From assembly GCF_013315695.1 (NCBI RefSeq), contig NZ_CP054353.1: DNA of 64,000 nucleotides. One strand, written 5' to 3'. Under the pieces are notes generated by a model that saw only the letters and a program-made list of their open reading frames with translations, did not search any database and had not been told where the DNA came from. Positions 8,784 through 18,774 of the stretch are shown here, piece after piece. How positions within the stretch are numbered: position 1 is the stretch's first letter; each line of letters starts with the position of its first letter. A program made the translations under genes and the position numbers. The DNA comes from Escherichia coli (lineage in GTDB: Bacteria > Pseudomonadota > Gammaproteobacteria > Enterobacterales > Enterobacteriaceae).

Positions 8784-8859
8784 GCCGATATAGCTCAGTT
8801 GGTAGAGCAGCGCATTCGTAATGCGAAGGTCGTAGGTTCGACTCCTATTATCGGCACCA
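8784..8859 (+). tRNA. thrW: tRNA-Thr (CGU anticodon), integration target
   Basis: 76-nt sequence GCCGATATAGCTCAGTTGGTAGAGCAGCGCATTCGTAATGCG...TCGGCACCA with cloverleaf-compatible stems; located after proA as in E. coli. Confidence 0.9.
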
Positions 8860-8875
8860 TTCAAACATCTCCCCA

Positions 8876-8961
8876 AGTCTACTAAAGTCTTTCAAAACCC
8901 CTTATAATCCGCGTATTAAAGCCCCGTTCGTCTTTTGACGTCTACTAAAGTCCCTCAAAAT
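8876..8961 (+). repeat. Direct repeats between thrW and the integrase start (candidate integrase arm-type sites in attL)
   Basis: GTCTACTAAAGTC(T/C)(T/C)TCAAAA occurs twice (8877-8898 and 8940-8961). Confidence 0.5.
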
Positions 8962-9024
8962 CTACGGTCAGATGGGGGTACTTATGGGGGTATTTGCTGT
9001 TCGGTTTAGTGGAGGTACCCCCAA

Positions 9025-15583: not shown

Positions 15584-18326
15584 TCTTATCCGTCAGGTTA
15601 TCAGTGCGTCTGAAAACAACTGGCCTCATGTGCTGGGCTGCCTGAACATAAATGTCCCTGACTCTCCGCGCCGTCATGCTCCCTGCCCTGCATGTGGGGG
15701 CAAAGATCGATTCCGGTTCGATGACAACGGGCGCGGTAGCTTCATCTGTAATCAGTGCGGCGCTGGTGATGGGCTGGATTTAATTAAACGCGTAAATAAC
15801 TGCGACACAACAGAGGCGGCGCTTCTTGCCGCTGATGTTCTGGGTATTGATTACCGGACAACGGAAACACCAGAAGCCACCAGCCAGAAACGGGAACAAC
15901 TGGAAACCGAGCGCCAGCGACGCGAACAGGAGCGCCTGAAAAGGGCAGAGAAGGACGAACAACAAAGACGGGATACGTTTTCCCGTCAGTTTGATGACAT
16001 GCGCAGAAAGGCTGTAAACGGCAAATCTGATTATCTGGTTGCGAAAGGGGTAGGTGATTTTACATTCCCCGTGTTGCCCGATGGATCTCTGTTGCTGGCG
16101 CTGGTGGATAAATCCGGCGCAGTCACAGCAGCACAGACTATTACATCACATGGTGAAAAAAGACTCCTGACAGGTTCAGCAAAGCGGGGGGCATATCACG
16201 CCATAAACGCGCCAGAAACAACACAGAGCATCTTAATCGCAGAAGGGCTGGCAACGGCATTATCTGCCCATTTAATTCGTCCAGAGGCGCTGACAGTGGC
16301 GGCGATTGATGCCGGGAACCTGTTATATGTCGCCCAGGTACTGCGGGATAAATTTCCTTCAGCACAAATCATCATTGCTGCGGATAACGACCACAGCGAA
16401 GGAAGACAAAACACGGGGAGAATAGCAGCAGAAAAAGCAGCTTTATCTGTTTCTGGATGGGTGGCATTACCCCCGACAGATCACAAAGCAGACTGGAATG
16501 ATTACCACCAAAAACACGGCATTAAATGCGCCACAGAAGCGTTCAATAAGTCAATGTACCAACCACAGGGTAATGGCGTGAAACATGAGCCACAGACCAT
16601 TGAGGGAAGCGATTTTAAGGTTATGGATACCGACCCACTGAAACCAAGAATAGAAAGCCGCGAGGATGGTATTTATTGGGTATCTCCGAGAGCTGACAGC
16701 CAGAGTGGAGAAATCATCAATAACGAAAGCTGGTTATGTTCTCCGTTAAGCGTTATCGGTACTGGCAGAGACGATAAAGACCAGTATCTCATTCTTCGCT
16801 GGCTGTCGTTTGGTTCTGAAACGCCGACAACCGCTGCCATTCCACTGGCTGATATTGGTGAACGTGAAGGATGGCGCACACTTAAAGCTGGTGGGGTAAA
16901 TGTCACGACCAAAAGCAGCCTCAGAGCAATACTGGCAGACTGGCTACAACGCAGTGGCTCTCGTGAATTGTGGCGTGTTGCTCATGCCACTGGCTGGCAA
17001 TGCGGAGCGTACATCATGCCTGATGGGGAAATCATCGGAACACCTGAAAATCCTGTGCTGTTCAGCGGGAGAAGCTCAGCCGCAGCCGGATATACCGTCT
17101 CAGGGAGCGCGAAAAGCTGGCGTGATAACGTGGCGCGTCTGGCCTTTGGTAACTATTCAATGATGACCGGGATCGGCGCAGCACTGGCAGCGCCATTGAT
17201 TGGGCTGGTGGGCGCTGACGGGTTCGGCATTCATTTCTATGAGCAGTCGAGCGCAGGTAAGACCACCACGGCAAACGTGGCGAGCAGCTTATACGGCAAC
17301 CCTGATTTACTGCGGCTGACGTGGTACGGAACCGCGCTGGGGCTGGCAAATGAGGCCGCCGCCCACAATGACGGACTAATGCCGCTTGATGAAGTTGGTC
17401 AGGGCGCTGATCCTGTCAGCGTTTCACAGTCTGCCTATGCGTTATTTAACGGTGTAGGGAAACTGCAAGGCGCTAAAGATGGTGGAAACCGGGATCTAAA
17501 ACGCTGGCGTACAGTGGCAATCAGCACCGGAGAAATGGATTTAGAAACATTTATCGCTACTTCCGGGCGAAAAACCAAAGCCGGGCAACTGGTGCGACTG
17601 CTGAATATTCCGTTGAGTAAAGCAGTACGCTTTCACGATTACCAGAACGGAAAACAGCACGCAGACGCACTGAAAGACGCTTACCAGCATCACCACGGCG
17701 CGTCCGGGCGTGAGTGGATTAAATGGCTGGCAGACCACCAGCAACAGGCTATTAAAACCGTTCGTGACTGCGAAAGCAGATGGAGAAGCCTGATCCCATC
17801 CGATTATGGTGAGCAGGTTCACCGTGTAGCCGCGCGATTTGCCATTCTGGAGGCCGCATTGTTGTTAGGCGAGGTTGTAACAGGCTGGGATGCTCAGACA
17901 TGCCGTGATGCGATACAGCACAGCTATAACGCATGGTTGCGCGAGTTCGGCACAGGTAACAAAGAGCATCAGCAGATTATTGAACAAACGGAGGCATTTC
18001 TTAATGCCTATGGGCTTAGCCGTTTTGCACCATTTCCATACAGCCCGGCAGATTTGCCCATCAAAGATTTAGCCGGATACCGTCAGCGTGGAGAACATGA
18101 CGAAAGCCCAATGATTTTCTACACATTCCCGGCCACATTTGAAAAGGAGATCGCATGTGGTTTCAACGCAAAACAGTTTGCTGAAGTGTTGAAAAAAGCC
18201 GGGATGCTAACCCCACCAAACAGCGGTCGTGGATACCAAAGAAAATCACCACGTATTCAGGGACGACAAATAAACGTTTATGTACTCAATTACCAGCCAG
18301 GAGATTATAACTCATCTGAAGAATGA
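15567..18326 (+). CDS. P4-alpha-like primase/helicase (zinc-binding primase domain + Toprim + NTPase)
   Basis: 919-aa ORF; N-terminal zinc motif CPACGGKDRFRFDDNGRGSFICNQCG; acidic Toprim-like stretch IIIAADNDHSEGRQNTG; nucleotide-binding-like motif later; followed by an iteron array. Confidence 0.8.
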   Translation: MMRNIDLIRQVISASENNWPHVLGCLNINVPDSPRRHAPCPACGGKDRFRFDDNGRGSFICNQCGAGDGLDLIKRVNNCDTTEAALLAADVLGIDYRTTETPEATSQKREQLETERQRREQERLKRAEKDEQQRRDTFSRQFDDMRRKAVNGKSDYLVAKGVGDFTFPVLPDGSLLLALVDKSGAVTAAQTITSHGEKRLLTGSAKRGAYHAINAPETTQSILIAEGLATALSAHLIRPEALTVAAIDAGNLLYVAQVLRDKFPSAQIIIAADNDHSEGRQNTGRIAAEKAALSVSGWVALPPTDHKADWNDYHQKHGIKCATEAFNKSMYQPQGNGVKHEPQTIEGSDFKVMDTDPLKPRIESREDGIYWVSPRADSQSGEIINNESWLCSPLSVIGTGRDDKDQYLILRWLSFGSETPTTAAIPLADIGEREGWRTLKAGGVNVTTKSSLRAILADWLQRSGSRELWRVAHATGWQCGAYIMPDGEIIGTPENPVLFSGRSSAAAGYTVSGSAKSWRDNVARLAFGNYSMMTGIGAALAAPLIGLVGADGFGIHFYEQSSAGKTTTANVASSLYGNPDLLRLTWYGTALGLANEAAAHNDGLMPLDEVGQGADPVSVSQSAYALFNGVGKLQGAKDGGNRDLKRWRTVAISTGEMDLETFIATSGRKTKAGQLVRLLNIPLSKAVRFHDYQNGKQHADALKDAYQHHHGASGREWIKWLADHQQQAIKTVRDCESRWRSLIPSDYGEQVHRVAARFAILEAALLLGEVVTGWDAQTCRDAIQHSYNAWLREFGTGNKEHQQIIEQTEAFLNAYGLSRFAPFPYSPADLPIKDLAGYRQRGEHDESPMIFYTFPATFEKEIACGFNAKQFAEVLKKAGMLTPPNSGRGYQRKSPRIQGRQINVYVLNYQPGDYNSSEE

Positions 18327-18351
18327 GCTTCTTCATGTGCGTAGAAAAGGT

Positions 18352-18452
18352 GTTGGTTCAGTTGGTTCAATTTGTAAAGAGTATTGTTTTATAAGGATTT
18401 TATTCTTTTTATTGAACCAACACTGAACCAACAACACGGTATTTTGAACCAA
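18352..18452 (+). repeat. Iteron array 1 (candidate replication origin/crr-like site)
   Basis: GTTGGTTCA x2 direct (18352-18369), AT-rich spacer, then TGAACCAAC x3 inverted (18413-18452). Confidence 0.6.
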
Positions 18453-18774
18453 CACAATGTGACTGAATTGATGCGCACAACACCTGGCTGGCATCAGAGA
18501 GTGTTTTACGAGACTTTCGTAAAATCCTGTGTACAAGGGCGTGACGTTTTTGAAAGTGAGCACTACGAAATTTTCGTAGTTCAGAAAACAGCCTCTGAGA
18601 AGTTGTTATGCCTGTTCAGCAAACCATCCGCATAGCTGATCGCGAATCAAATTACCAATGGAGCCAGAAGCAAGGGCAGAACTGAAAAGCGCCTGCCGTG
18701 AAGAGTAATGCGACACCATAAATATAGTTTTTAGAGTCCATAAAAAACCTGTCAAAACCTGACACACAGAACGA

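Follow-up and report, generated by a model that had tools for sequence, protein, structure and literature searches.

Background

The closest described relative of the element considered here is EcCIMP1, a phage-inducible chromosomal island (PICI) of 19,963 bp (GenBank OR778291) reported by Pick, Stadel and Raivio (ISME J 2025; PMC11773190). EcCIMP1 occupies a tRNA-Thr gene between proA and yagU with the att core TCCTATTATC, excises and circularises only on induction of the P22-like phage Kapi1, and requires both int and alpA, the latter encoding its master activator, in order to do so (Pick et al. 2025; PMC11773190). It shows low-frequency transduction, contributes to superinfection immunity, gives no match in PADLOC or DefenseFinder and encodes a PerC-like protein that silences LEE, the enterocyte effacement locus (PMC11773190). 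A related element is found at thrW in a stretch of 64,000 nucleotides from Escherichia coli (contig NZ_CP054353.1 of assembly GCF_013315695.1), here termed the window, and we consider it probable that this element is an EcCIMP1-type PICI of P22-like phages operating broadly as proposed below. The satellite itself is ordinary, being a further, broken member of a family that was already described and tested in 2025, and the value of the locus lies in what its sequence adds, namely a putative RNA switch, the identity and evolution of an ejection cassette, a SieA-like gene and a set of terS-like sites.

Relationship to EcCIMP1 and class of satellite

When reassembled the element measures 19,090 bp (19.1 kb) and shares with EcCIMP1 the tRNA-Thr site between proA and yagU, the att core and a backbone of approximately 98% nucleotide identity that covers int to gp7 on the left (11.3 kb) and also the right arm (2.2 kb). 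The products AlpA, DUF4222, s73, s200, s53, PerC-like, r61 and pRiA4b-ORF3 are listed under identical accessions in E. coli MP1, and the integrase is 97 - 99% identical to that of EcCIMP1-like elements. The two islands differ in their gp20 and gp16 alleles (33% and 16% amino-acid identity), in the gene that follows gp16 (a lipoprotein gene in EcCIMP1, a SieA-like gene here), in their C4 specificity loops, in a 236-bp insertion between int and alpA of the window copy, in the lack from that copy of the alpA_1/xis-like gene, and in its having been split by IS1 and an inversion. The backbone is present in 230 of 5,426 complete E. coli genomes (~4%) and relatives of it occur in about 50 other Enterobacterales species.

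The original prediction was of a P4-like or PICI-like satellite integrated at thrW, and thrW, the arm-site repeats, the integrase, AlpA, AntA/B, the overlapping open reading frames (ORFs), the primase and the iteron array all lie where it had placed them. The PICI-like part of that assignment is borne out by the ~98% identity to EcCIMP1 and by a layout which, set against the criteria for Gram-negative PICIs of Fillol-Salom et al. (2018), comprises int, alpA and a primase/replication gene with an adjacent ori in a single orientation. Those criteria also specify that phage structural and lysis genes be absent, but four virion-protein genes (gp14-, gp7-, gp20- and gp16-like) are carried; of the PICI packaging module (terS, rpp, capsid-size genes) PHROG recovered nothing, the only traces being terS-like DNA sites, and the capsid, portal and head-tail connector genes that capsid-forming PICIs possess are lacking. 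The strictly P4-like part of the assignment did not survive. A P4-like satellite of P2-type phages would share with the element an arm-type integrase beside a tRNA gene, alpA, a small immunity RNA of the CI/C4 family that precedes the replication operon and a primase-helicase closing that operon, all of which are indeed found. This reading is nevertheless highly improbable, since PHROG scans covering all ORFs gave no homologues of psu, delta, sid or epsilon, the primase has a DUF927 domain and not one of the D5/P4-alpha type, the experimentally shown helper of the 98%-identical relative is a P22-like podovirus and the virion genes carried are P22-type.

The extent of 8784-18480 given in the original prediction takes in only the left half of the element, which runs on to 21625, where it is cut by an IS1 (21626-22393, minus strand; placed by junction sequence and annotation), and its remainder is found in inverted orientation at 45798->39513 (minus strand), terminating in attR. 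The same 9-bp target duplication, GGGTGATTA, stands on both junctions, at 21617-25 and at 45799-45807, the latter next to a partner IS1 at 45808-46575, and the two IS1 copies are mutually inverted; from these two facts it follows that IS1 first inserted at the junction of genes 20 and 16 and that the segment 22421-45806 was inverted afterwards. When that segment is read backwards the K-12 gene order is restored. In intact relatives such as PEC301, gene 20 is followed by a gene-16 homologue, a variable slot, the PerC-like gene, the pRiA4b-ORF3 family gene and attR, and homology of the window element to PEC301 stops exactly at the attR core. The core TCCTATTATC is present at both ends, in attL at 8843-8852 and in attR at 39513-39522 (-), so that both boundaries were found, their absence together with non-coding small ORFs being what would have spoken against a satellite at this site. 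No attR in direct orientation was present when sought throughout the window; the only other thrW-like 20-mer, at 32590-32609 (-) with 2 mismatches, was dismissed as attR and belongs to a second island. As attL and attR face each other in inverted orientation ~30 kb apart, excision of the window copy as a unit would not be expected.

A candidate antisense-RNA switch and the replication operon

RNA silencing is established for P1 c4 and for P4 CI, and the arrangement found upstream of the replication genes of the island is of this kind. An isrK-like RNA (12921..12998, +; Rfam RF01394, 67.8 bits against a gathering score of 50), which has its own terminator, is followed by a C4-family antisense RNA (13061..13148, +; Rfam RF01695, 79.9 bits against a gathering score of 45) and then by an Icd-like ORF (13202-13396, +; NCBIfam phage_ICD_like, 71.7 bits with a cut-off of 25). 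The C4 RNA has two recognition elements, b' (13105-13113) and a' (13120-13126). Its loop CCTTCAGAG is complementary both to b1 (12961-12969), within the isrK-like RNA, and to b2 (13184-13192), which lies over the icd ribosome-binding site AAGGAGG, while its element ACGCCAA is complementary to a1 (12946-12952), again within the isrK-like RNA, and to a2 (13153-13159), downstream of the C4 RNA. The fold has a z-score of -4.8 and, among the relatives compared, compensatory changes in 13 of its 28 pairs with hardly any pairs broken. Both recognition elements covary with the upstream and the downstream targets in 16/16 distinct variants, in all of which duplexes of 7 - 14 nucleotides can form with both targets. 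These variants fall into at least 8 specificity types and, as the window copy and EcCIMP1 differ in their specificity loops and so in type, the two are predicted to be heteroimmune.

By the precedent of P1 and P4 the C4 RNA should block translation of icd and thereby silence the genes downstream, and the switch probably sets the immunity of the island. As in immI of P1 and P7 (c4 - icd - ant) and the CI RNA of P4, a C4-family RNA with two recognition elements has targets on both sides of it, and as in immI b2 overlies the ribosome-binding site of icd, the translation of icd is coupled to that of the genes after it and several specificity types exist. The output differs, being an antirepressor in P1, whereas the island has an operon ending in a primase, as has P4, with AntA/B placed upstream of the switch and small ORFs and the primase downstream of icd. 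In the resting state the C4-family RNA would pair with the icd leader and ribosome-binding site, and the block would spread through overlapping start and stop codons as far as the primase; anatomy and covariation are direct readings of the sequence, and it is the silencing that we infer from P1 immI and P4 CI. A perfect TATAAT occurs at 13040-13045, 15 nucleotides upstream of the 5' end of the C4 RNA, and the RNA may therefore have a promoter of its own besides being processed from a longer transcript.

The isrK-like RNA, the C4 RNA and the Icd-like ORF all lie inside an annotated coding sequence of 355 amino acids. This RefSeq 'ash family protein' (12540-13607) is a composite that consists largely of RNA genes: icd is read in a frame other than that of ash, and the last 72 codons of ash are those of a separate coupled ORF. 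In 22 relatives variability in the ash frame is flat across codon positions (0.18/0.19/0.20), in contrast to the coding pattern of the icd ORF (0.13/0.13/0.30), and in close relatives the long ash ORF is annotated as a pseudogene. The match to Pfam Phage_ASH covers amino acids 124-232, or nucleotides 12909-13235, and coincides with both RNA genes; the signal of the Pfam 'Ash' family may be largely one of RNA conservation.

Downstream of icd a chain of small coupled ORFs, s72, s64, s87, s73, s200, s113 and s123 (13389..15583, +), can be followed from its junction sequences, each start overlapping the preceding stop from icd through to the primase. The octamer ATGAATAA recurs at 13600 and 14265, as had been noted at the outset, and both positions are gene junctions; it is not enriched, with 7 copies in the window against 3.3 expected. 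These ORFs had been regarded as unannotated and as possible hot-spot cargo or defence genes. RefSeq in fact calls all those listed, as hypothetical proteins, and what is truly without annotation comprises the two RNA genes and one ORF of 72 amino acids, s72 (13389-13607, +), which is intact in 8 E. coli copies (one, L007, has synonymous changes only and four others have 1 - 4 amino-acid substitutions) and has a homologue in Pluralibacter. The ratio of nonsynonymous to synonymous substitution rates (dN/dS) is 0.21 - 0.30 for s73, s200 and s113, which are conserved across genera. The coupled genes upstream of the switch, hyp143 (11094-11525, +), AntA/B antirepressor-like (11538-12371, +; PHROG) and DUF4222 (12364-12546, +; PHROG), are likewise kept across genera, with dN/dS of 0.12 - 0.17. 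By contrast the constraint on s87 is weak (dN/dS 0.66, based on 4 informative pairs), and two ORFs, s64 and s123, are known from E. coli only and have no informative variation. Because of this cross-genus conservation and of dN/dS values of 0.12 - 0.30 (s87, s64 and s123 excepted), the small-ORF block is part of the conserved core of the island, as its regulated replication operon, rather than cargo. PADLOC found no defence model in hyp143, s200 or the right-arm ORFs scanned from the window copy and gave only a weak candidate-family match for AntA/B. Pfam has nothing for hyp143, s200 or v151.

The operon ends in a replication protein of 918 amino acids with Zn-ribbon primase, Toprim and DUF927 domains (15570..18326, +; Pfam, and PHROG DNA primase at 2e-178). 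It is followed by ori-like array 1 (18352..18456), consisting of two copies of the 9-mer GTTGGTTCA, an AT-rich spacer and three copies of the 9-mer TGAACCAAC. Array 2 (41540..41683), with five copies of GTTGGTTCA, an AT-rich spacer and three of TGAACCAAC, is inverted relative to array 1 in the orientation of the element, and both arrays are also present in EcCIMP1. The primase/DUF927 protein would replicate the island from such a 9-mer iteron origin. The arrays bracket s53, the ejection cassette and the variable-slot segment, and in relatives from other genera perC stands ~0.2 - 1.4 kb downstream of the primase.

The P22-type ejection cassette and its SieA-like neighbour

The genes beyond the primase begin with s53 (18902..19063, +), a small conserved backbone ORF that opens the module (43 - 100% amino-acid identity over 32 loci; dN/dS 0.18). 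After it come gp14-like (19080-19541, +; PHROG 1e-66), gp7-like (19535-20212, +; PHROG 2e-69) and gp20-like (20212-21630, +; PHROG 5e-110) genes, in the last of which a single Arg encoded across the IS1 junction replaces the last two residues. The gp16-like gene (43693..45798, -; PHROG DNA transfer protein, 4e-159), with a transglycosylase region, is full length and now stands apart from its operon. The set is complete and in P22 gene order, all four ORFs are intact in the 7 copies compared, and there is purifying selection on gp16 (dN/dS 0.14 against the A29 allele) and gp20 (dN/dS 0.28). At least 3 unrelated allele types of gp20 and gp16 are found on a backbone in which the primase is 99 - 100% identical. 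Identity to the counterparts in the helper Kapi1 is 84% for gp14 (a 292-nucleotide stretch reaching 98%) and 57% for gp7, gp20 matches at 34% over its N-terminus only, and gp16 gives no significant match; no deposited phage gp20 exceeds 53% identity to the gp20 of the island. NCBIfam had no model matching the ejection proteins or the SieA-like protein.

Gene 16 is followed on the opposite strand by a gene for a SieA-like protein of 204 amino acids (43059..43673, +), which is the position of sieA in P22-like phages. The protein is hydrophobic, with membrane spans predicted by eye, and is 34% identical over 118 amino acids (E = 2e-9) to the experimentally tested SieA of prophage HS1; the PHROG SieA-like match is weak (4e-4), and the SieA motif FxRYPxEAxxFNK is partly matched (TNRYPGEARRARK, which includes NRYPGEAR). 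SieA prevents injection through its action on gp16 and gp20 (PMC10883804), and gp20 and gp16 are the hypervariable members of the ejection module in P22-like phages (PMC10883804), as they are in the island. Gene order and sizes are also those of the phage module (14, 7, 20, 16, sieA); it differs in being housed in an island without terminase, portal, scaffold, coat, gp4, gp10, gp26 or tailspike. P22-type TerL, portal, scaffold, coat, gp4, gp10 and gp26 gave no tblastn match in any family member, the island has no tailspike gene, and other capsid, tail and lysis genes were not found either. In other variants of the family the slot after gp16 holds different envelope proteins, with AbiD only in the ET565 relative, and it is here, in the variable region downstream of the primase and beyond the interval first proposed, that the island has its hot spot, not in the small-ORF block.

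The best reading of these 'DNA transfer' genes, on comparative grounds, is that of a full P22 ejection set, kept by selection and exchanging alleles, with a slot for a superinfection exclusion (Sie) gene. They might alternatively be the functionless relic of a P22-like prophage that once lay in tandem at thrW and whose right end was fused to the island by a deletion. The P22-like prophage HS1 does reside at thrW and has the same order of DUF2824, gp7, gp20 and gp16, then sieA on the opposite strand; moreover the cassette is limited to Escherichia members of the family, being missing from relatives in other genera, and some variants, A29 and PKF11 among them, have neither gp14 nor gp7. We regard a relic as improbable, however, as four ORFs have stayed intact in seven independent copies under purifying selection, gp20 and gp16 alleles have been replaced repeatedly on a near-identical backbone, island DNA including the arm sites and attR lies on both flanks of the cassette, and the cassette also occurs in an element whose integrase and integration site are both different. 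As part of a maintained ejection set, the gp14/7/20/16 proteins of the island would act at the step of DNA injection to deliver the island, and the SieA-like inner-membrane protein of this variant would exclude incoming P22-like phages. The idea that the island poisons helper virions with mismatched gp16 and gp20 was set aside, given that EcCIMP1 leaves Kapi1 titres unreduced.

terS-like sites and packaging

No homologue of Rpp or TerS was recognised in the element, and the authors of EcCIMP1 likewise report no recognisable packaging module (PMC11773190). What the element does contain is a series of short sites resembling the inside of phage terS genes. The first, at 12856..12881 (+), is identical in 26/26 nucleotides to an internal site of the terS of prophage HS1 and is a candidate pac mimic; degenerate copies of it lie at 18569-18590 and 18726-18747. 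Three more, at 42566-42593, 42852-42879 and 41158-41185 (-), are of Sf6/Kapi1 type and fit the pattern TTT[CT]G.GAC[AC]AGTACGCG, which also matches the Sf6/HK620-type terS of Kapi1; by our own estimate ~2e-5 matches to this pattern would be expected in the Kapi1 genome. The core 24-mer of the 12856-12881 site occurs in 73 IMG/VR contigs, in 55 of them inside HS1-type terS and in 18 within PICI relatives, with 0 elsewhere. A third version of the motif stands in a non-coding context in relatives from other genera; within IMG/VR the exact 21-mer of this version is confined to such islands and to a third type of terS. The three motif types all fall at the homologous codon position within the TerS DNA-binding domain. 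Each element has six copies, all in one orientation regardless of the direction of the neighbouring genes. That the repeats code for a peptide (FRDKYA) was considered and rejected, and because the open frames around them are short (4 - 103 codons) and inconsistent they are taken as DNA sites.

The terS-like sites may be mimics of pac sites, in which case the helper's own terminase would package the island. A comparable solution is known from the cos-type PICIs of E. coli (EcCICFT073 and relatives), equipped with the cos site of the helper and with Rpp; the likeness would lie in using the helper's own terminase and copying its packaging signal, and the difference in the candidate signals here being pac-type, taken from inside terS, and corresponding to at least 2 TerS types. 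Alternatively the repeats could serve as operators or as activator sites recognised by AlpA, by the PerC-like protein or by the ribbon-helix-helix-like v151, with their identity to terS owed to regulation of helper genes or to shared descent. Several of the six copies are intergenic and upstream of operons (12856, 18726), and in other genera the site lies 80 - 190 nucleotides upstream of the isrK/C4 locus, as would suit a regulator. Binding sites of this kind would not readily account for a single orientation whatever the direction of adjoining genes, for three motif types each matching a different terS type at a homologous codon position, or for a 24-mer confined in IMG/VR to terS genes and these islands, and this alternative is considered rather unlikely. 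It is also at odds with Leavitt et al. (2013), who reportedly located the pac site of Sf6 within the stretch of terS coding for the DNA-binding domain. The pac-mimic reading has the merit of supplying a concrete candidate packaging signal common only to phage terS genes and the island.

Proposed life cycle and points that weigh against it

Taken together the parts suggest a life cycle in which the helper phage induces alpA and AlpA and the integrase drive excision, as was shown for EcCIMP1 and would apply to the window element by its likeness, with replication, packaging and delivery as outlined above. Two features would be new for PICIs, the possession of pac-site copies for several TerS types and the use of the island's own gp20/gp16 ejection proteins with a Sie-type gene in deciding entry; that both are exploits of the helper in this sense is proposed tentatively, as a possibility. 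If it is true, pac copies would let an unmodified helper terminase package the islands, which would explain the use of diverse helpers, and a choice would be made at the injection step such that the island enters a cell which rival phages cannot. Two questions left open in the EcCIMP1 paper, the mechanism of packaging and the source of superinfection immunity, would then be answered.

A number of points weigh against this interpretation. The P22 pac sequence has no match in the window, and the terS-like sites could, as discussed, bind a regulator. The complete ejection set is not universal, given its restriction to Escherichia and the variants without gp14 and gp7. Kapi1 transduces EcCIMP1 very inefficiently and EcCIMP1 does not lower Kapi1 titres (PMC11773190), from which it follows that strong interference with the helper is unlikely. 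Finally, the window copy is physically split.

The left end and the interval between int and alpA

The element is integrated at thrW, a tRNA-Thr(CGU) gene at 8784..8859 (+; ARAGORN, and Rfam tRNA at 71.8 bits). Candidate integrase arm-type sites follow at 8877..8993 (+), made up of 21-nucleotide direct repeats at 8877-8897 and 8940-8960, for which 0 would be expected by chance, and of ATGGGGGTACTTATGGGGGTAT (ATGGGGGTAC-type motif) at 8972-8993, which recurs beside attR at 39584-39605 (-). The tyrosine integrase (9025..10239, +; PHROG integrase, 1e-77) is of the arm-binding IntS/CP4-57 type. The AlpA regulator (10891..11094, +; PHROG), with an AlpA-type helix-turn-helix, has an accession equal to that of the EcCIMP1 alpA product in the RefSeq record of E. 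coli MP1.

Between int and alpA the window copy has a 236-bp segment (10412-10648) that is not in EcCIMP1 and contains two exact 24-nucleotide direct repeats (10492-10515 and 10605-10628) with a short hairpin on each. Other variants carry a DUF6387 gene in place of this segment, and for that reason the interval is taken to be a second variable slot. In some relatives the Rfam int-alpA RNA motif is found at this interval. A 14-mer within hyp143, GCTAATTCAGATAT at 11124-11137, recurs in the gene immediately upstream of terS both in Kapi1 and in prophage HS1, a sharing that may be due to chance (~0.2 expected).

The variable-slot segment and right arm

Two further ORFs lie in the variable-slot segment, v151 (41781-42236, +) and v73 (42316-42537, +), both recognised from their translations and without a Pfam or PADLOC match. 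The product of v73 is a small tail-anchored protein. To judge by eye the N-terminus of v151 is ribbon-helix-helix-like, its start (VAFRIPSELQDEFNRSV...WLVDAIRMKL) resembling that DNA-binding fold. The gene is kept in other genera; it and perC are divergently oriented on either side of iteron array 2, and v151 is a candidate for the island repressor.

The right arm (39513..41503, -) consists of the PerC/ANR-like gene, r61, the pRiA4b-ORF3 family gene, r119, an arm site and attR, with r119 on the plus strand. The PerC/ANR-like gene (41222-41503, -) has a product with the same accession as a PerC-family protein of E. coli MP1, which was matched to EcCIMP1_025.

Neighbourhood of the element

A second island is present in tandem at 32590-39505. 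Besides an integrase ORF (32695-34029) it includes a gene for a 'phage baseplate protein', a truncated ORF and IS2, and the thrW-like 20-mer at 32590-32609 (-) is its remnant of a thrW 3' end. The region from thrW to lac has been reshaped by four IS1 copies (21626-22393, 25126-25897, 45808-46575 and 63495-64000). Within it only a truncated ecpC is left beside the lost ecpB, ecpA and ecpR, and the bet/prp/cyn region, which in K-12 separates ykgG from lac, is absent. Beside lacY there is a truncated pseudogene with a maltose-acetyltransferase domain, which is probably lacA.

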